DNA of 51,697 nt, counting the filler, from Catajapyx aquilonaris (Eukaryota), in the NCBI GenBank assembly GCA_000934665.2. It is 2 parts of 2 records of this genome, joined end to end, with 100 filler letters (N's around TTAATTAATTAA, not from the genome) between each part and the next. Parts side by side here need not be neighbours in the genome. Positions count along the whole stretch, not along the records: positions 23,679 to 51,697 come from KZ539393.1; 1 more part is not named here. The stretch is one strand, 5' to 3'. Position 1 is the first letter of the stretch; the number at the start of each line of letters is the position of its first letter. Below the pieces are notes generated by a model. It ran no database searches. It saw nothing but the letters and a program-made list of their open reading frames with translations, and was not told the DNA's origin. Positions 9,412 to 32,002 of this stretch are shown here, in pieces. Position numbers and translations under genes: made by a program.

Positions 9412-9828
9412 ATTAGGCTTTTAGTATTTCGGACATTGCTGCTAACATGCGATATCAAGCACACAGTTTGTAATATACAATTATTTTAAATGGCAGCACA
9501 AATGTTCATTTCTTTATTGCTAAAATATCGTCAATCCAAAAAATTATTTCAACAGCTCTTAAATGATGCTGCCAATGTTTTCGAGACATTTCCGTAAAAT
9601 ATAGAGAGAGTACACTATTGTGATATAAGAAAGGCAGGGGGTGAAGGGGAAGAGACCAAACAATCCTTGTTGGGGTTGCTTAGGCCGCTCATTCTGTGAT
9701 AAACAATTCACTACCAGGTGCAGGTGTAGATTTGGAATAGGGCCAGCCCACTTGCGAGGCGCACACATAGGGTGGGACCTGGTCTGGTTGGGGTTGGCGT
9801 GACACTGGACTTGTGTTCCTTCTTCCAG

Positions 9829-10329
9829 GGAGATGCACAACAGTTGAAGAGCAGGACAAAGGAGAGACCCTTCCCAGCCATGGACATGCTCAAATTGGGA
9901 ATATTCCCTTGTCCCCACTGCCCCAACGTCTTCAGAAAGAAGCTTGATTTGGTGGCACACAACACGACCCATTCAAAGTGGGACAGGGTGAAGGTGGAGG
10001 TCAAGGAGGAGGAGCCAGTGGGGGTCACGTTCAACAAGGATGAGGTGGAGGCCATGGGAGGTTGGAAAGGAAGAGGTGCCCTGAGGGTCAAGGAGGAGCC
10101 AGGGGAGGAGGAGGGCAACAGCAGCCAGGAAATGAGTGTCTCTGGTGCAGAAGAAGAGGAGGAGGAGCCAGGGGAGGAGGAGGGCAACATCAGCCATGAA
10201 ATAAGTGACCCTGGTGCAGAAGAAGAGGAGGAGGGCAGAAGGAGGGATCAGGATGACACTGATCATCCAGCCAGAGAGGTGGAGGAGACTGGGGGTAGAA
10301 GTGACGGAGACGGAGGAAGGCAAGAGCAG
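9829..10329 (+). CDS. C2H2 zinc-finger gene, exon A: one finger, VKxE motifs and a Glu-rich region
   Basis: Phase-0 acceptor tcttccag|GGA at 9829, or a Kozak-context gccATGg at 9880. Encodes FPCPHCPNVFRKKLDLVAHNTTH, then VKVE, VKEE, VKEE. Has a 69-bp in-frame duplication (10093-10161, 10162-10230). Phase-0 donor CAG|gtgag after 10329. Confidence 0.8.
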
Positions 10330-10460
10330 GTGAGAAAGCAGATATTGGGCATGTTCGCATAATGGAGTGAAAAGTGGGGTGCCAAAAGTGATCTAAAAAA
10401 CCTACAGTTTTAACCAACTTAAAGGATCTCCTCAAGGGTTGACTTGTCTCATGACTGTAA

Positions 10461-16699: not shown

Positions 16700-17190
16700 T
16701 AATACGAGAAAGCCAAAGTCACCCCAAAGTGCACTCCTTCGACAACTCCTGCGTGCTATCCAATTGATGATTATTTATCAGTGTAGGCCGGCCATATAAT
16801 GCAACCTTATCTGTCCGGTCCCTCCCATACCTCTCACAGTCAGTCCAAAATGCTGCAGAGGTGTAAATGGCGTGGGAGAAATGTCACGGGGGCCAGAAGA
16901 CCGCCGGGGTCGAAACGCCGGGGGCCAGATGTCCGAGACCCCACATAATATTGCATGTAATATTTAAAATAATTTAATTGTTATTGAAGCACCAGGAACC
17001 AAGCTCAGTCAGATTATGCTCAATCGGGGCCCCACTTCCGTGAGGTAAACGGAACTCTATGTTAGGCCCCCCATTCGCTCTAGGATAATCGCCCGATTGC
17101 ACATGGCAATGTCCCAGTAGTATATTATCTTGTATGATTTTAAAACCATGTCCCAACATCTCCCAGTATTTACATCTGCATTTATTTCAG

Positions 17191-17610
17191 GGAAAAGTTG
17201 CCAAAGAGCACATTCAGAATGGTACCCAGCAAGACATCCACAAAGGAAGACACTTGCCGGGGAAGGTTTGTCAGATTTGCAAGAAAACGTTTAGTGAATT
17301 AGGATATTTGAAAAAGCACATGAAAACTCACACAGGGGAGAAGCCATTCAGTTGCAAGGTTTGCAAGAAAAGGTTTCGTCAGTCATGCGAGTTGAATACA
17401 CACATGAGAACCCACACCGGGGAGAAGCCATTCTGTTGCAAGGTTTGCAAGAAAAGGTTTCGTCAGTCAGAACATTTGAATAGGCATGTGAGGACTCACA
17501 CAGGGGAGAAGCCATTCCGTTGCATGATTTGCAAGAGAAAGTTTAGTGAGTCAGGAGCTTTGAATAGGCACATGAGAACCCACACAGGGGAGAAGCCATT
17601 CAGTTGCTAA
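17191..17610 (+). CDS. C2H2 zinc-finger gene, exon C: 4 intact tandem fingers ending at an in-frame TAA
   Basis: Phase-0 acceptor tttatttcag|GGA. CxxC-x12-HxxxH fingers with TGEKP linkers start at 17269. TAA at 17608-17610 lies between the two Cys of finger 5. Confidence 0.88.
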   Translation, partial: GKVAKEHIQNGTQQDIHKGRHLPGKVCQICKKTFSELGYLKKHMKTHTGEKPFSCKVCKKRFRQSCELNTHMRTHTGEKPFCCKVCKKRFRQSEHLNRHVRTHTGEKPFRCMICKRKFSESGALNRHMRTHTGEKPFSC

Positions 17611-18265
17611 GTTTGCAAGAGAAAGTTTCGTGAGTCAGGGCATTTGAATGTCCACATGAGAACCCACACAGGGGAGAAGCCATTCAGTTGCTCAATTTGC
17701 AAGAGAAAGTTTAGTGAGCCAGGAACTTTGAATAAGCACATGAGAACCCACACAGGGGAGAAGCCATTCAGTTGCTCAATTTGCAAGAGAAAGTTTAGTG
17801 CGTCAGGAAATTTGAATGTCCACATGAGGACCCACACAGGGGAGAAGCCATTCAGTTGCAAAGTTTGCAAGAGAAAGTTAAGTCGATCAAGAAGTTTGAA
17901 GGATCACATGAGGACCCACACAGGGGAGAAGCCATTCAGTTGCGACGTTTGTGAGAGAAAGTTTAGTGTGTCAGGACATTTGAATAGACACATGAGAACC
18001 CACACATAGGAGAAGCCATTCAGTTGCGAGATTTGGAAGAAGAGGTTTAGTCATTCAGGAAATTTGAATAGGCATATGAGGAGCCACACATGGGAGAAGC
18101 CATTCAGTGGCGTGGTTTGTGAGAGAAAGTTTATTGACTCAGGAACTTTGAAAAAACACATGATGGTTCGCACAGGGGAGAAGCCATTCTGTTGTCAAGA
18201 GAGAGTTTGCTCGCTCGGGAAATTTGAAAGATCATATTGTTAGGGGGCACAAAGGAGAAAAGTGA
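17611..18265 (+). pseudogene. Continuation of the zinc-finger array beyond the stop (fingers 5-12), progressively degenerate
   Basis: Same frame and 84-bp period. Fingers 6-9 are intact, TAG at 18007 lies in a linker, finger 10 has C>W, finger 11 has C>G and H>R, and finger 12 is frameshifted and ends ...HKGEK* at 18265. Confidence 0.85.
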
Positions 18266-23578: not shown

Positions 23579-23678
23579 NNNNNNNNNNNNNNNNNNNNNN
23601 NNNNNNNNNNNNNNNNNNNNNNTTAATTAATTAANNNNNNNNNNNNNNNNNNNNNNNNNNNNNNNNNNNNNNNNNNNN
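23579..23678. other. Artificial scaffold gap/linker
   Basis: Exactly 100 bp: 44 N + TTAATTAATTAA (stop in all six frames) + 44 N. Confidence 0.95.
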
Positions 23679-24039
23679 ATCATCCGCGTGCTTGAGTAAC
23701 TCCCAAACACTAAATTCACGCTAATCCAAACATAAATTATTGTTGACCATGAATTTCGCGATTTTGCCCACTGTGCACTGGTTGGAATATTGAATTTTTT
23801 CAAACTTCACATGGCCATAGCATAGGACCATAGGTGGATGGAACGTCATCATTGTCACCCTTTCAAAAATATTTCATTCTAATTGTAGGCATAGGTATTA
23901 TACTCAAACCTGTACAAAACATCATCTATGATGACCACAAATGGCGAGTGGAGATGTCCAGAGCAGAAAATTTCACTGTTAGGATACCCTCAAATACAAC
24001 ACTGGTAACTCAATAGACACGTCACAGAGAAACTTCGTA

Positions 24040-24200
24040 CAGTGTTCGACATTAATCAAGGCATACTGCCAGCGACATTTTCCAAAGCGGCAGAAGAAGT
24101 AACCTTGCTCGCCTGGCTTGCAGTATCCTATCTTCGATTCCTTCTTCTGCCGCTTCGGAAAATGTCGCTAGCAATATGCCTCGATTAATGTCCAACACTG
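24040..24200. mobile_element. Tc1/mariner-type MITE, 161 bp
   Basis: TA|CAGTGTTCGACATTAATC ... GATTAATGTCCAACACTG|TA. The termini resemble those of the 11507 MITE. Confidence 0.85.
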
Positions 24201-24423
24201 TACATGACATTTTATGTGAAACACAAAGTGCAGATTCAGAAAATGGTGTTGCTTAAATAATTATTCCCCATTAGAAATGCTAATCCAACACATGAGCTTT
24301 TTGCATATTTCCATATTTGGAGTTTCTTGTTGGCTTAATATGATAGCTTGTTACCATAACCAAATAGCCATAATTTTATGATGAAATTATCTTGAGCAAC
24401 TTCTGGACACAAACACCAAGTTA

Positions 24424-25084
24424 CAAAGGACCTGTTCAAAGTTATCCTGGCAAAGAAAGGCCACCCACATGGCTCAATGATTCGTGTCATTAAGATTGGA
24501 GCAGATCACTGAAACTTGGCAACGCAGGGGAGTTGGATCAAAATGTTGCTGTCCAGCCACTCTAATATATGTCATTCAATGGAAGAATGCTTCTAAAGGG
24601 TGACCTTCATCAGTTTGGAGAAAGAGTTCGCCCGTGCTTTGCCAACGAACGCCATCATGAATTCCGCCAGCTCCGCCTCTCTCTTTCCTCTCTCTCTTTT
24701 AGGGGAGAGTGAGAGAGAGAGGAGAGGGAGTGAGGGAGAGATACGCGATAGGGCAAACGCGTGATATCTCGATGGGGCTTGCATTTCGCATATTGTTTCC
24801 CTGACTCGGCATTTGTCTCACACGAATATTCTTACAACATTTTTACAGGGTAAAAACAACACGAGTTTTCCTAGGTCTAAATCAACTAATAAAACAGTTC
24901 ACCACGTGACAACATGTTTTGAATCTTACCAAGGCCGCTAGGTAGCAACCCCTACCACATCAAAGATACAGTCAGTGGCGAACACAGCGGCCTTTAGCGT
25001 AAAACTAGGTGCATAGATTATACACTACAAGATGCGCAAGATGGTTGCCGTTTAGGTAGCGGGGCAACTTGAACAGGTCCTTTG
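24424..25084. mobile_element. Non-autonomous TIR element (16-bp TIR)
   Basis: CAAAGGACCTGTTCAA ... TTGAACAGGTCCTTTG. No clear TSD. Confidence 0.6.
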
Positions 25085-25311
25085 CAATTTGCAGCCTACA
25101 TTTTGCAGTTGGGAAGCTAATTACAAAGAAACTGAATTTTATTTTTTCATCTGATGATAGTGGGAACAGACTCACTAAATGCTAGTGCAATACCTTCTTA
25201 AACCAACCCTTGCATGCATTCTTTCTAACTGTTCCCAAATATAACAACAGAACTACTTGCAATTACATGTAGCTAAACCAAAAAGGAATCCTAGTAGGAA
25301 CATATCAATAC

Positions 25312-25377
25312 CTGCAAGTTCTTGTTGGCAGTGAAGTAGTGGACGCTGCATGTTGACATTGTTATCTGCTACACCTT
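25312..25377 (-). CDS. TNFR-like receptor, cytoplasmic exon 2
   Basis: ttcttattag|AAG...GCAG|gtattg, 66 nt, phase 1-1. Encodes EGVADNNVNMQRPLLHCQQELA. Confidence 0.6.
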
Positions 25378-25442
25378 CTAATAAGAATATGAAAAATGTT
25401 CTTGATTAAAATCCTGCAAACAAAATATTTCATTTCCTTTAC

Positions 25443-25520
25443 CTTCTGCATGAACCAGTAATGAACTTCTGCCATCTTCTTCATTATATGGTGGAGGTGC
25501 TCCTTCATATGATCTGGTAC
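25443..25520 (-). CDS. TNFR-like receptor, cytoplasmic exon with PPxY motif
   Basis: tcttttatag|GTA...GAAG|gtaaag, 78 nt, phase 1-1. Encodes GTRSYEGAPPPYNEEDGRSSLLVHAE. Confidence 0.72.
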
Positions 25521-26635
25521 CTATAAAAGAGGGGAATGTTTATTTGCCTCAAAAAAAATTGATCCACAGAATCTGTAGCTTTATCAGTTACGATATGAGC
25601 AAAAGGATAAATCATATAGGAAACTTCGAACACCCCTCAACTACTCCTTGACATTGGCTTATTTATGCAGGAGGCAAAATAGTAAGCTTTATAAGATAAT
25701 AAGTAGGTCCTATTTATCAACGGCTGTACCCAAAAGACGGTAACATAATTTGACAAGTGACACCTTCGGGCCAGTTCCATGATTGAGGGTGAATTCAGTA
25801 CAAATTGTTTTGTAAATTTTATTTATACAGTATAACATCAAGTGTACTGCATGGTGGATCCCTCAGTCCCATTCTACTTCTACAGAATTTGTACTGTATA
25901 TGGTGGATGTAAATGAAACATTTAACAATAAAGATCTTCATGGCATAAACTTATGGGACTCAACAACTACAATAAGCCAATGATAGAGTACTACTAGCAA
26001 ACAATATACCATATTCTCAGAACCTAATAAAATAATTGGTATTTAAAACAATATTGTTATTATTCTCTTCATTTCTACATCACTAATCTAATCTTCAAAT
26101 TATTCGTAAAATTTATTTGGGCATGTTTACATTAGGTCTGCTAGATGACCACTTATTCCACATATGGGATGGACTGAAACAGTGTGGAGTAGTTGAACTC
26201 TCATTTTATTAAGCAAGGTTAATTTATTACTGAATGAGGCAAGTTGTCTCATTTTGCAGGATAAGATAAAACATATAGGAGAGAAAATCCATTAATTGAA
26301 TGAAAAAACTCCTCTATTTGCACTTACAGGCCTAAAGAGAAGTTCACATACTACATCAGGATCACATATCATGTTTCTCATGGTCACACATGAATGGCTT
26401 GCTTTTAAAAATGATATTCTTGAGTAACAAAAAATTACTTCGGTGTCCAAAATACCAATCACTCCTCTATCTGGCACTGAGAATCACACTAGCATGGATC
26501 ATAGTGGTGGGAGGTAATGAGAGGGCCCATATGAGAGGAGTCACGAATCCTGATGCCAAGTACTTCTTTGGTTATTAGCTTTGTTTCAACCTGCCCCACT
26601 CTTGCCTACATAAACAGGAGTGAGAAGCACAATAC

Positions 26636-26779
26636 CTTGAGCTGGACGATTTCTTCTTTTCATAACGACAGCTGTAATAATAGCTGTGCCAATAGCCACT
26701 GCTATGAGTATAGGTGGATAGATGTAGTGAGAAACTACACCACTGCTTGCAGCCTTCTTCCTTCCAGTACCATTTTTTC
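26636..26779 (-). CDS. TNFR-like receptor, transmembrane exon
   Basis: atatgcag|GAA...CAAG|gtattg, 144 nt, phase 1-1. Encodes GKNGTGRKKAASSGVVSHYIYPPILIAVAIGTAIITAVVMKRRNRPAQ: a hydrophobic helix followed by a basic stop-transfer signal. Confidence 0.8.
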
Positions 26780-26837
26780 CTGCATATTTAACATAAAGTC
26801 AAACAATGCCTAAACAAACATAGGGCTTGTGACTTAC

Positions 26838-26914
26838 CGTCCATTGATCTTTGAGAAATGGCTACAGCTGGTGGTTCCACTTCACATGCTGGTGTGAGTT
26901 TTGCAGGAACATGA
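26838..26914 (-). CDS. TNFR-like receptor, stalk exon
   Basis: ctctctttccag|TCAT...GACG|gtaagt, 77 nt, phase 2-1, matching both neighbours. Encodes HVPAKLTPACEVEPPAVAISQRSMD. Confidence 0.8.
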
Positions 26915-26995
26915 CTGGAAAGAGAGTTTATTATGTATTGCAGACTCATCTTATCTTGTATATTCACATTCTATGAATGAAATTATAAACCTCAC

Positions 26996-27147
26996 CCTGG
27001 TAAACATTGTCCACATTCAAAGGGAGTTTTGGCACATTTCGTTTGACCTTCTTCTCTATTGTAATAGTAGCATGACTGACATGGTTGACACATGCCTGTT
27101 TTTAGGTTGCAGAAGTTCTTCCATGTACACTCATGGTCAGCTTTACA
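26996..27147 (-). CDS. TNFR-like receptor, Cys-rich ectodomain exon
   Basis: ctcttccag|TGT...CCAGG|gtgagg, 152 nt. Encodes CKADHECTWKNFCNLKTGMCQPCQSCYYYNREEGQTKCAKTPFECGQCLPG. The CxPCxxC...NR...C...CGxCLPG pattern resembles TNFRSF19/EDA2R Cys-rich domains as recalled. Confidence 0.8.
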
Positions 27148-27209
27148 CTGGAAGAGCAAATCATTAGAAAAGAGGCACCCCAATACAGTATACAATATAT
27201 ACTGATATA

Positions 27210-27432
27210 CAGGATCTGGATGTTTCAACTTTTTTGTCCGAACAGTTATTGGAAATATTGCACTAAGCTGCTACTTTGTAAGCCACTTGTAAGTGTATGC
27301 CACTTCAACCTAAGATTCGCAGGGAATATTCCCCATTCCTCCGACAAACCGGTTGCAAGTCGCTGCTTACAGAGTAGCAGCTTAGTGCAATATTTCTGAT
27401 AACTGTTCGAACAAAAAAGTTGAAACACCCTG
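27210..27432. mobile_element. Tc1/mariner-type MITE (intronic)
   Basis: tgtttcaactttttt.gt.cgaacagttat..gaaatattgcactaagctgctact is inverted at ~27373-27427, with right end AAACACCCTG|TA. Confidence 0.85.
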
Positions 27433-28130
27433 TATACTGATAAACATTATTGTACCAGTGCTCGCACACTAACTGTCATGTGACACATGCCCTTTATAGG
27501 TGACTAAACATCCTATCATTGACCCAAACATCAGTATATGATCCAGTTGATTTGTGTGACGTCAAAAGGTCATTTTCAGCGTGCAAAAATGTATTGTCAG
27601 ACAGGCATCACCGAATAACTGCAATTAACCAACAAAAATATGGAACAACTGCTAGTTTGTTACTGTGCCGCAAAATTTCATGGCCAAGTGATAGTGTAGA
27701 AATTAAAATAAATTAGGGCCTGCTTGATTTTTACAGCTTATTAAGACCCTATTTTGACTGTTTTCAGGGCCAAAATGCCTACCTATTTCAGGGTTTTTTA
27801 GAACCTAAAAATCTGTTCCTTACTTATATCTTTATGTGTTAGAAATCAATAGTCAAAAGTTAAATGTTATTTAGGGTATGCTCTCACACTTGGAGGTCAC
27901 AAAGTCTATCCCGATGCAACTTTTGAACAATTATGAGAGACAGTTGCAATGCAACTAATCAGGACCAAAAGGTGTCTGGTTAATTTAAAACAAGAAAGCT
28001 GGGAGTAGAGGGTGTAGGAGTGGAAAAAATTCTATGTTACAGGAAGTTGACAAAATGCCTGTAGCAGTTACTGGGAAAATACTGGGAAAAATGTCTGCAT
28101 ACACAACACAATTCCATAAGCAATGGTAAA

Positions 28131-28440
28131 TATAAGCAGGCCACACTAACTTGCCATTGACGTCATCGTTTTGTTTACCAATTCCTAGTCAATGGAAATC
28201 TGCCGAACACACCGCTGGAACCTCCCACTTTTCAAGTTTTCCATGGAGATGCCCTCACACAACAATATGAGTAAACAGTGTTAACAAAAAAGAACAGTTT
28301 ACTCCCATTGTTGCATGAGAGCATCTCTATGGTTCCAAACTTGAAAAGTGGGAGGTTCCAGCGGTGTGTTCGGCAGATTTCCATTGACTAGGAATTGGTA
28401 AACAAAATGATGGCGTCAATGGCAAGTCAGCCTGCCTATA
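28131..28440. mobile_element. MITE with ~90-bp near-perfect inverted arms
   Basis: acttgccattgacg.cat..ttttgtttaccaattcctagtcaatggaaatctgccgaacacaccgctggaacctcccacttttcaagttt (28149) is inverted ending at 28427. Confidence 0.85.
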
Positions 28441-28511
28441 ACACTGCATGGAAGTCCACCTAATAGGTACCATAATGAAAGTACAGATACCAATACTTAA
28501 ACAAAACTCGC

Positions 28512-28595
28512 CTGTTCCTTGGTGCACAATTTGTGGCGAGATGGATTGGGTGGGGAGCTGCACCTTGCAGATGATGACATAAAAGAAGTCCAGCT
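28512..28595 (-). CDS. Candidate N-terminal exon of the TNFR-like gene with a GC donor
   Basis: tttttag|AGC...CAG|gcgagt, 84 nt, open in phase 0-0 (SWTSFMSSSARCSSPPNPSRHKLCTKEQ). Speculative. Confidence 0.3.
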
Positions 28596-29012
28596 CTAAA
28601 AATCTTCAATGTAAAGGATATTTTAAAGGGGGAATATGCCACAGAGTCAAAACATTGCAGCTCTTTTTCAAGATGCTTTTGTGGCACATATCCCTTCAAA
28701 ATACCTCACCCAGTAGGTTTTCACAGGTTGTTAGATCTGGACTTCCTGTCATCACCCAAAAGATAATTATGTGAGGCAGATCATGGTATTGTATTTGTCA
28801 ACATGCCAACTGCGAAGTAGTTATATATGATCATATAAAAATGTACACAGTGACCATGCAATATGTACCATATTTCAAAACCCCATGATCATTACTCGTT
28901 TACATGTCCATTAGTTACATAAGGGAGGGCGCAGGTGGAGGGGGACTCTAGTTTTGGTTATAATGCTAGAAGGGCATGTATAGTCCCTACGATGGACCTG
29001 TGACCTACTACA

Positions 29013-29080
<68 letters not shown>

Positions 29081-29859
29081 TATTAATTAATTAATTTAAT
29101 ACCCCATTATCAGCCAACCGGCTTTTCTAGGGGGGGATTACTCCCAATTTTTTGTCTGGAACTCTTCCATTTTTTACTACCTTTTCATCGGAATTAACCC
29201 TTAACTACGTAGGTGGAGCCTGAGAGGCTCCAAGCACTATTTAAACGCATGTAACTTTTTCTTCGAATTTTATTTTCCCCTGTCCTTCCGTGACTTTGTC
29301 AGACAAACCTTCTTAAGCATGAAAAGGAAATTTTTTTTTTTTTTTGTCCCTATTGTTTGGTTTAAAAAAATTCGTAACGAGGAACAGGTCCCTCCTGGAC
29401 TCTATACTGGCTCTACCTGTGCAGGTGAAGCCTGAGCGGCTCAAGCATGACGTAACCTTTTAATTAAGAATTTTTCCCTGTCGGAATATGCTGACTCAGC
29501 GTGTGATTTTTACGTTATCGGAAGCCTAATGATCTGAACTGCACTTTCTGTATGTGAAAAGTCCAATATAACAATTTAGTTGATAAGCAGAAATTTAAAT
29601 ATACCGTTGGAGCCTGTCAGGCTCCACCTACGTAGTTAAAGGTGTTTCACCCACCTACGTAGTTAAGGGTTAAGCAGGGATAGGGAAGGAAGGAAGCGGC
29701 TGTGGCCTATAATTACGGTAACGACCCCGGAATTGTCCTGCGAGGACCATGGGAAACCACAGAAAACCATGGTCAGGGTCGCCGGCCTCCGGGATTCGAA
29801 CCCAGGACCTCCCGATTAGCAGTCAGACACCTTATCCACTCCACCACTACTGCTTCGGT

Positions 29860-29860
<1 letters not shown>
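29013..29860 (-). mobile_element. Second copy of the tRNA-derived SINE, split by a MITE and embedded in (AAT)n
   Basis: The head 29860-29674 aligns with 20891-21078 and has an intact B box gggttcgaatccc. The 3' part resumes at 29193 (gagttccag...cccctagaaaagccggttggctgataatggggtat plus (ATT)n). (AAT)n also lies upstream at 29861-29921. Confidence 0.88.
29198..29669. mobile_element. piggyBac-type MITE inserted in the SINE
   Basis: TTAA|CCCTTAACTACGTAGGTGG ... CCACCTACGTAGTTAAGGG|TTAA. The right terminus is locally duplicated. Confidence 0.88.
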
Positions 29861-29922
<62 letters not shown>

Positions 29923-31274
29923 TGGCTAATAATAATGGTTATAATATATCCACCATGAGTTTCTTTATTTAAATGACACAGCCCAGGAATATTATGTTTA
30001 TACAATGTACAATACAGGCCTACATTCTCTACAACTATATGGTACGGACAATGTAATTAAAAGGCTCCAGCTTGTGAACTGATGTGCATAAGGGTTTTAC
30101 TTCCGCACCTACGTTCGCAAGGGCACAATGGGCAAACTAAATACAAATATCAAATAAATAATATCAACATTCTGACAGTTTGAACGAGTACACGATCAAC
30201 TCAACATATGTGCACAGCAACCAAAATTTATATCCCAAATTAAAATGAAATAAAATAAAATGTCCTCACATTGTGACACACGCCAGTAGGCCTAGCTACC
30301 ACTGCTGTGCAAACCTTTTTCTCTCGAAGTTCCTTCCACGTGTGGTTTATGCACATTTTCACAATTTTTAGTAAACTACAGCTCCGATACTATCGTTGAC
30401 AGGTCATGAGCACGGCCTTGGCCGTGAGAAAAGGCCATGCAATTCCCGTAATTCCAACTTAATTTTATTAATATTAATTAACCTAATCCAATCGAGCTCA
30501 TATCCCCATTAGACCTAAATTAATCACTATTTTGCATTTCATCTGGAACTTATGTTGACATCACGTTGACAGCACTTAATCACCATGTAGCCTGATGTGC
30601 GCCTCTTTTCAGCGCCAATAGTACCCTAGTTCAGGATCACCCCACGGAATCACCCGACTTTTCCGGATGGCGGGAATGGGTGAAACCGCGCCACACAAAA
30701 TGATTCATTCAGCCTTGCCCTAGATGCCCCTAGATGTTTACAACTGCAACACTTGACTGCAAACTTACAACACAGCATCACTTCCGATCCGATTCATTTT
30801 ACACCGCGTTTTGCTCGGGTTTTGCTGGAACCAATTAACGGCATAAAACTGGTACTTTCTGTAATAATACGGTACTAACAGGAAGAGCACTGGATATACG
30901 TACGAACTTGCACTTTGAAGTGCTTGAGAGATAAGGAGTCACGGGGCTTCACCTGACCACACCAATGCCGCAATTTTTTCTAAACCCCCCGATGTCACAT
31001 GAGGCACATGCGGCACATGACAAATTGATAGGAGCCGAATTATGTGCAATCATCTTACCTGACCCTGAGGATAGGCTTCTGAGTAGCGTATTATCACGCC
31101 CAAAATCTGTAAGGGAAAAGGAACCGTCAACAACTAGTATGCGGTACAGTGAGGCGCCTTGTCTGCCTGCAAACATGTATACTTCATATTGTACACACCA
31201 TTAGTTAGGTGTAGGCTCAAGTTATATTGCACACTGCCAAACAGTCACGAGACTTCCGTTATGTAGGCATTTAA

Positions 31275-31363
31275 AAGAAGAAGAAGAAGAAGAAGAAGAA
31301 GAAGAAGAAGAAGAAGAAGAAGAAGAAGAAGAAGAAGAAGAAGAAGAAGAAGAAGAAGAAGAG
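31275..31363. repeat. (GAA)n microsatellite
   Basis: Pure run. It is the source of a spurious poly-Ser ORF. Confidence 0.97.
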
Positions 31364-31624
31364 GTCCATGAGGGTACAATCTCTAAAAACGGAAGTCGTG
31401 ACATTTCGTCAGTTCGCTCATTTCTCGTTACAAGTGAACCATGCAGTTATTATCACTTTCTGAGGCAATTTCCAGCTAAATGGTACGTTACAATAAACAG
31501 GAAGTGGATATCGCTCTGTACTCTCGTAACTTGTTCGTTCCTTTTGTTATTACCATCCTAATGATAGCCCACTACTCTATCGAGGCTACTGAAAATTTAT
31601 GCGATATATGGATATATAACTTAC

Positions 31625-31648
31625 CAGGGCGATTGTTGCTAGTCGCAT
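31625..31648 (-). CDS. Candidate start exon (exon 31667-31625, coding MRLATIAL) of the TNFR-like gene
   Basis: Strong acceptor ctctttttcag and donor CTG|gtaagt. An in-frame ATG gives a signal-peptide-like start in phase 0, compatible with the Cys-rich exon. Another gtaagt donor at 32636 may close a non-coding first exon. Confidence 0.4.
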
Positions 31649-31735
31649 AATGATGCGAGGGTTCCCTCTGAAAAAGAGTGCGAAATTTAGTGATTGCACC
31701 ACAGGCTTAGATTAGACGTCAGACAACACCGCATA

Positions 31736-32002
31736 CAGTGGCGGATCTATGGGGGGGGGGGGGGGGGTTNNNNNNNNNNNNNNNNNNNNNNNNNNNNNNN
31801 NNNNNNNNNNNNNNNNNNNNNNNNNNNNNNNNNNNNNNNNNNNNNNNNNNNNNNNNNNNNNNNNNNNNNNNNNNNNNNNNNNNNNNNNNNNNNNNNNNNN
31901 NNNNNNNNNNNNNNNNNNNNNNNNNNNNNNNNNNNNNNNNNNNNNNNNNNGGGGGGGGGGGGGGATCACCACCCCCAACAACGAGGTCTAGATCCGCCCC
32001 TG
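31736..32002. mobile_element. hAT-type MITE spanning a poly-G-flanked assembly gap (N 31770-31950)
   Basis: CAGTGGCGGATCTA ... TAGATCCGCCCCTG, with imperfect 8-bp flanks accgcata/actacata. Confidence 0.75.

Follow-up and report, generated by a model that had tools for sequence, protein, structure and literature searches.

We consider a gene on the minus strand, read from 27147 down to 25312, of a stretch of Catajapyx aquilonaris DNA (assembly GCA_000934665.2; 51,697 nucleotides with filler, called the window below), of which positions 23,679 to 51,697 come from KZ539393.1. This expressed and spliced arthropod gene encodes a small single-pass membrane protein. As a whole it is best explained, with a probability that we put at roughly 55%, as an expressed gene of at least eight exons for a small type I receptor, in which a tumour necrosis factor receptor (TNFR) domain resembling that of Drosophila Grindelwald (Grnd) is followed by a half-domain, a glycosylated stalk and a short tail.

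Gene structure, transcript and encoded protein

The original prediction described five phase-compatible GT-AG exons here, and all five are present on the minus strand. Each block has a pyrimidine-rich tract and AG before it and GT after it, and the five blocks, joined by script, give a single open frame, 172 codons and one base long, which is far beyond chance expectation. The block starting at 27147, which had been taken for the first exon, turns out to be the third coding exon, since two signal-peptide exons lie upstream of it. The coding exons of the known part of the gene are the following.

Exon 1, coding part, 31625..31648, minus strand: ATG at 31648 plus 7 codons (MRLATIAL), with which the signal peptide begins; upstream of the ATG there is a stop in the same frame, and a GT donor (GTAAGT at 31624) follows.
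Exon 2, 31059..31106, minus strand: 48 nucleotides (nt), ILGVIIRYSEAYPQGQ, completing the signal peptide and providing the mature N-terminus; acceptor ...cttacag, donor gtaaga; joined to exon 3 in the sequencing run X1.
Exon 3 (exon A below; exon 1 of the original prediction), 26996..27147, minus strand: 152 nt, the cysteine-rich domain with 9 Cys, ending in CGQCLPG; X1 joints on both sides.
Exon 4, 26838..26914, minus strand: 77 nt, where the stalk begins, with the 10th Cys, which closes C-x12-C after CGQC; X1 joints on both sides.
Exon 5, 26636..26779, minus strand: 144 nt, an NGT sequon, a basic and Ser-rich stalk, the transmembrane helix, the stop-transfer sequence KRRNR and the start of PAQGT; X1 joints.
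Exon 6, 25443..25520, minus strand: 78 nt, cytoplasmic, with PPPY; X1 joints on both sides.
Exon 7, 25312..25377, minus strand: 66 nt, cytoplasmic, with a phase-1 end on a GT donor; it is therefore not the last exon.

The transcript evidence comes from X1, the one public run found to contain this stretch (0.62 of the sampled words; its kind is not recorded), which was mapped onto 23679-31200. X1 is treated as derived from RNA or cDNA only because one of its contigs spans introns, and a retrocopy could in principle yield the same contig. An RNA origin fits the lack of cover over the introns that are joined across and the huge differences in depth between repeats and exons. The contig in question, record 4 on the minus strand (1424 letters at depth 12.6), has joints at 25377/25443, 25517/26633 (cut +3), 26778/26837 (cut +1), 26914/26996 and 27147/31059. 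All of these have CT..AC ends on the plus strand, that is GT..AG on the minus strand, and the two pieces of the contig that are listed contain 0 other letters. The four introns of the original prediction, for which a check by transcript data had been proposed, are all joined at their exact predicted borders, and the joint 27147/31059 reveals a fifth intron.

The 5' end of the transcript can be placed by length. The 197 contig letters upstream of exon A are 48 + 149, which places the transcript start at the assembly gap, where Ns begin at 31770. The same length bookkeeping, with GT-AG borders and phase 0, would join exon 1 to exon 2, at a junction outside the mapped stretch. At the other end, the bin 25185-25435 has a depth of 3.32, exactly that of 66 nt at depth 12.6, so that record 4 departs from the genome stretch at 25312. 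Its remaining letters (about 710, on the 3' side of 25312) do not lie within 23679-25311. A scan of the minus strand below 25312 for 3' exons, using phase-correct acceptors, open reading frames (ORFs) and poly(A) signals, gave 125 candidates, none of them convincing. The gene is flanked by N stretches, of 44 + 44 N at 23579-23678, which may hide the next exon, and of 181 N at 31770-31950, which adjoin a poly-C run at the 5' end of the transcript. In the presumed 5' untranslated region we also observe an upstream ORF of 15 codons (31687-31734, minus strand, ATG at 31734), in a different frame from the main ATG at 31648, and intron 1 contains a long (TTC)n microsatellite (31277-31360, minus strand).

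The known protein has 196 residues, comprising a leader, a Cys-rich ectodomain, a stalk, a transmembrane helix and a tail of at least 56 residues. The Cys residues are at positions 25, 31, 37, 44, 47, 50, 62, 69, 72 and 85, nine of them in exon A (CKADHEC...CGQCLP) and one in the next exon. A single NGT sequon is found at residue 103. The Kyte-Doolittle hydrophobic 19-mer peak covers residues 119-142 and puts the helix at about 122-140; it is the sole hydrophobic stretch (PILIAVAIGTAIITAVVM) of the five exons first described. KRRNR follows the helix, and the last two known exons are hydrophilic, the tail carrying PPPY. Together, exons 1 and 2 encode a typical signal peptide. The order of features is that of a type I protein: a leader (MRLATIALILGVII...), a single extracellular Cys-rich domain, one transmembrane helix and then KRRNR. 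The 10-Cys ectodomain, the NGT stalk, the helix, KRRNR and the cytoplasmic tail are all as first claimed. The wider claim, of a gene with several exons for a type I membrane protein whose Cys-rich domain is TNFR-like, is supported as well.

Relatives and identity of the Cys-rich domain

We turn our attention to the family to which this domain belongs. A phmmer search with exon A against 1.84 billion cluster representatives returns five proteins at E <= 0.001. True relatives are P0003 (73 residues), P0004 (70 residues) and P0005 (106 residues), with 47-50% identity; the other two, P0002 (1655 residues) and P0006 (1897 residues), were dropped as leucine-rich repeat proteins in which only short Cys stretches match. 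A profile search added P0007 (144 residues) and completes a family of five with the window protein (P0001), exon A being 44-50% identical to the four relatives. All four are nameless ORF fragments, each the single member of its cluster, from raw assemblies, and each of these ORFs stops or turns to nonsense directly after CG.CLPG or CG.CMEG. In tblastn all four resemble the window only as far as 26995-26998, the position of the exon A donor, which suggests that the intron position is conserved. In A3, the clean domain alignment of the five sequences, 17 of 50 columns are invariant, namely all nine Cys together with D4, L15, T17, Y29, R31, K40, P42 and G46.

The gene had been called probably unannotated, and this agrees with the searches: no full-length or named relative was found in the protein collections covered, the 1.84 billion representatives included. 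A word-index search for longer proteins gave no candidate for P0001 and 203 candidates for profile A1, none of them at E <= 10, and the ESM Atlas held no usable match for P0001 or for residues 31-109 of P0007. Within the window, tblastn and a scan for the Cys pattern find no further copy of the gene. A metagenome scan with profile A3 gave 31 pattern matches and one locus confirmed by tblastn, which was rejected: it is a chance, off-frame match of 11 residues (CAKTPFDCGTC, 478-510) in an ABC-transporter gene on a bacterial contig of high GC content. This locus warns that the CAK..P..CG pattern alone lacks specificity.

The next question is which known domain the family resembles. In sequence searches of the PDB (177,635 distinct sequences in each search, matches listed at E <= 10), Grindelwald is the top or only match for all three family profiles: it is the sole match of profile A1 (6zsy, E 0.045, 17.3 bits) and of the clean-domain profile A3 (E 0.089), and with profile A2, which has untrimmed flanks, it ties for the top with EDAR (7x9g_C) at E 0.17, ahead of 10 rows of complement factor D that we regard as noise. 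We give weight to these non-significant matches because the Cys registers are nearly the same.

For the comparison of registers we rely on the available part of the structural study of Grnd (PMC8024323), which gives C35-x4-C40-x6-C47-x6-C54-x2-C57-x3-C61-x11-C73-x3-C77. There, an X2 hairpin with two intercalated disulfides is followed by a C2 module, Phe46 packs between the modules, the mutations F46A and T51A each abolish binding to Eiger (Egr), and H66 and N67 contact Egr. The window protein reads C-x5-C-x5-C-x6-C-x2-C-x2-C-x11-C-x6-C, and its first eight Cys can be aligned to those of Grnd, with spacings of 5, 5, 6, 2, 2, 11 and 6 against 4, 6, 6, 2, 3, 11 and 3. The two proteins have the same span from the first to the fourth Cys (19) and the same x11 loop. 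In the HMMER alignment the Phe46 column is F or Y in five of five family members, and the column of Thr51, a hairpin residue of Grnd, is an invariant Thr in all five. H-P-C of Grnd aligns with x-P-C of the family, C-x-P-C being common to both, and CAKE aligns with CAKT, CAKE, CAKG or CSKE.

Other positions differ. The window has no sequon at the position of Asn63, and the Egr-contacting pair His66-Asn67 corresponds to Arg-Glu, the counterpart of His66 being a family-invariant Arg when counted from Cys61/Cys26. Two further Cys of the window protein (CG.CLPG...C) apparently make up an additional A1 module; the crystallised Grnd fragment has nothing that corresponds to the part following the eighth Cys (G-x-C-L-P-G, 12 residues, Cys). 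This C-x2-C...C piece (CGQCLPG...C) resembles the A1 module with which a second TNFR domain would open. In the best explanation as a whole, the domain would be built as an N-terminal two-disulfide beta-hairpin of the X2 type and then a four-Cys module.

The tie with EDAR bears on the likeness to TROY/XEDAR put forward in the original prediction, and on the reading that goes with it, in which the gene would be a descendant of the EDAR/XEDAR/TROY (EXT) group trimmed to about 1.5 domains, with an EDA-like or Eiger-like TNF as ligand. Beyond the tie itself, in which ECGPCLPGYY of EDAR falls on ECGDCLPG(YV) of the family, this view can draw on CxxCxxC, the canonical TNFR spacing, unlike that of Grnd, and possibly on a stretch CxPCxxC...NR...CGDCLPG in TROY. 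The EDAR alignment keeps only five of nine Cys, however, and rests mostly on ECG.CLPG; EDAR is absent from the matches of profiles A1 and A3; and one full domain is found here against three in EXT receptors. The opening of a domain by C-x2-C-x2-G is a generic feature of TNFR A1 modules, so it is not diagnostic of this lineage. EXT-type receptors are reported in protostomes, including a horseshoe crab, in the accessible part of 10.1101/2021.12.26.474206, which speaks for this descent. We consider it distinctly improbable. The claim of a closer likeness to TROY/XEDAR than to the fly receptors finds no support, as Grnd recurs in three of three profiles and EDAR once, with five of nine Cys, in a comparison that represents the group through EDAR alone. 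Among the sequences tested Grnd is the nearer, and the EXT resemblance, as far as alignments tell, is confined to the junction motif; the gene probably belongs, as a divergent member, to an already known receptor type and not to the TROY/XEDAR type.

The other arthropod TNF receptor is Wengen (Wgn), and a Wengen orthologue would also have a single domain with CxxCxxC. According to the consulted part of PMC8024323, Wgn fits canonical TNFRs more closely than Grnd does, and homology to human TNFR domains led to its discovery. The family shows no such homology to the Pfam TNFR domain (see below), and its four-Cys hairpin is of the X2 type of Grnd and BAFFR, so we regard orthology with Wengen as highly improbable.

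Several results weigh against the reading as a Grnd-like receptor. Significant similarity to Grnd is not reached in the PDB sequence searches (best E 0.045, range 0.045-0.17), and in the profile A1 match the composition-bias term amounts to 9.0 of 17.2 bits. With single queries Grnd is the top PDB match for one of the five members (P0004, E 0.63); P0001 and P0003 lead to unrelated proteins, and P0005 and P0007 to no match. Pfam TNFR_c6 is not matched at E <= 10, whether the query is the window exon or any of the five members, a result that also speaks against EXT descent and against Wengen. Within the register itself, the window has CxxCxxC (CQPCQSC) where Grnd has CxxCxxxC, and the last Cys spacing is x6 instead of x3, with three extra residues before the eighth Cys. 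The C-terminus, finally, lies beyond the known 196 residues.

The structure predictions are to be added to these points. In each of two AlphaFold2 runs only one of five models is confident: with a four-sequence alignment the best has a predicted local distance difference test (pLDDT) score of 81.4 and the other four 41.6-45.6, and with the five-sequence alignment the figures are 73.7 and 40.3-43.8. The second module differs between the two best models, being a beta-hairpin in one and a loop and helix in the other. Foldseek finds nothing at E <= 0.001 with either model, and its top row for both is Draxin (Dickkopf-like domain; probability 0.80 and 0.92; 22 to 33 columns). A wide VIA-align search has 0 of 48,161 chains at Z >= 2. 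On the other side of the balance, a hairpin of residues 11-14/19-22 is found in the best model of both runs (block pLDDT 84-89); Foldseek, whose matches to Grnd have E 2.4-5.7, lists it 18th for model 1 and both second and sixth for model 2; and chains of the TNFR superfamily (Grnd, 4-1BB, GITR, BCMA) make up 9 of the 23 matches listed for model 2. The models allow for a hairpin module of the TNFR type.

The recurrence of Draxin leads to a different explanation, in which the protein is not a TNF receptor and is instead a small Cys-rich single-pass adaptor with a Dickkopf- or colipase-like finger as ectodomain, whose PPPY would bring Nedd4-type ubiquitin ligases to other membrane proteins. Shisa/WBP1/VOPP1-like proteins are reportedly PPPY-type adaptors. 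Dickkopf_N (PF04706) is the commonest weak Pfam match, found in four of the five members (best E 0.0099, below cutoff), and Opy2 matches weakly in three of the five; both also count against the receptor reading. All Dickkopf_N scores, however, lie below the gathering cutoff of 25 bits, the window reaching at most 14.5, and the match covers the hairpin only (model positions 2-28 of 51, the first 25 residues), whereas the Grnd register takes in all eight Cys. No Shisa, WBP-1 or CYYR1 Pfam match is obtained with exon A or the transmembrane exon, and CC doublets of the kind found in Shisa-like domains are absent. We therefore hold an adaptor of this kind to be unlikely.

Taken together, the evidence for a TNF-receptor domain in these sequences is convergent but weak. 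We read the gene as Grnd-like, its core having the canonical spacing and its ectodomain an additional half-domain; annotation has missed it in the collections searched.

Proposed mechanism and neighbouring elements

If the gene does encode a Grnd-like receptor, it would act as the receptor for the organism's own Eiger-type TNF ligand. Three receptor copies would bind in the grooves of the Eiger/TNF trimer, as three copies do in the Egr:Grnd complex described in the available part of PMC8024323. Two contacts can be proposed, one through the rigid hairpin (with the family-invariant Thr and the conserved aromatic core) and the other through the loop after CxxCxxC (with the family-invariant Tyr and Arg). 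The clustering of receptors would then recruit adaptors to the tail, where the juxtamembrane PAQGT (TRAF-type) and PPPY (for WW-domain or Nedd4-type ligases, acting in endocytosis or turnover) are the candidate motifs. The tail of Grnd itself binds Traf2 and Veli. PxQxT is a form of the TRAF-binding motif, and PPPY is a ligand for WW domains such as those of Nedd4-type ligases. The presence of PAQGT and PPPY suggests adaptor recruitment and regulated endocytosis.

The neighbourhood of the gene holds a number of other elements. Just upstream of the Cys-rich exon, the intron contains an inverted repeat of 66 nt (27218-27283 / 27365-27430, 92% complementary, 81 nt apart) that is like a miniature inverted-repeat transposable element; X1 contigs have 'opposite strands' joints here (27255/27382 and 27295/27348) and the depth is raised. 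A high-copy element at 29150-29860, in the 3.9-kb intron, reaches an X1 depth of about 8900 and lies between (AAT)n tracts at 29017-29078 and 29862-29922. At 29790-29850 a box of the type GGATTCGAACCC resembles, on the minus strand, the head of a tRNA-derived short interspersed nuclear element. ARAGORN finds 0 tRNA genes in 27100-31200, and Rfam gives 0 matches over the whole window, this box included.

Farther away, two adjacent open frames on the plus strand (17089-18009; 173 and 132 residues) encode a long C2H2 zinc finger array with HTGEKPF linkers, which is a separate gene on the opposite strand, downstream of the receptor gene. Another plus-strand ORF (9730-10362) encodes a lone C2H2-like finger (CPHCPNVFRKK...H) and, after it, long repeats that are acidic and rich in Glu.

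Origin and comparison with known receptors

TNF signalling in arthropods is usually presented as one ligand (Eiger) and two receptors (Wengen and Grindelwald), and the origin of Grindelwald is unsettled. In the part of 10.1101/2024.07.27.603686 that was available, 115 grnd homologues are reported from 148 invertebrate proteomes, one in at least 77 of 118 arthropod species; grnd-like genes go back to Cnidaria, and the ligand-binding domains commonly carry either CxxCxxC or CxxCxxxC. The accessible part of 10.1101/2021.12.26.474206 has Grnd arise out of Wengen in an ancestor shared by insects and crustaceans. Springtails are not mentioned in those parts of either source. As annotation misses small, fast-evolving, multi-exon receptors, tables of the presence and absence of TNF receptors in arthropods may undercount them.

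The family could also be placed between Grindelwald and the canonical multi-domain TNF receptors, as a surviving intermediate with a Grnd-type hairpin, a canonical CxxCxxC module and, left over from a second domain, its first module with the CG.CLPG junction of EXT type. We give this placement a low probability. If it were true, Grnd would have arisen by truncation of an EXT-like receptor and not, as the PITA preprint proposes, by duplication of Wengen, and early-branching hexapods would keep a receptor type that is lost or unrecognised in insects.

Among the known systems, Dickkopf and Draxin resemble the window protein in its first 25 residues (C-x2-D-x2-C...C...C-x2-C), which match Dickkopf_N weakly, and its predicted hairpin superposes on Draxin over 22 columns with a root-mean-square deviation of 0.4; they are secreted, without a transmembrane helix, and only the hairpin matches. 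The single-domain vertebrate TNFRs BAFF-R, BCMA, TACI (domain 2) and Fn14 are alike in that one small domain binds the ligand. The X2 hairpin type is common to Grnd and BAFF-R, as stated in the available part of PMC8024323, and BCMA chains are among the weak Foldseek rows of model 2. These receptors are unlike the window protein in giving no sequence match, and their DxL hairpin-tip motif, absent in Grnd according to the same part of that source, is not seen here. With the EXT group the gene shares the ECG.CLPG junction between modules, the CxxCxxC core and, in the known part of the tail, the lack of a death domain; EXT receptors, in contrast, have about three canonical domains recognised by TNFR_c6 where the gene has one atypical domain and a half.

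Grnd (PDB 6ZSY, 6ZSZ and 6ZT0) is, like the protein described here, a small type I protein that has a signal peptide, a single Cys-rich domain, a glycosylated stalk, one transmembrane helix and a short tail. The gene can be aligned residue by residue with Grnd yet keeps the canonical CxxCxxC core and an apparent remnant of a second domain, and so provides a concrete sequence on which the models of Grindelwald's origin can be tested.

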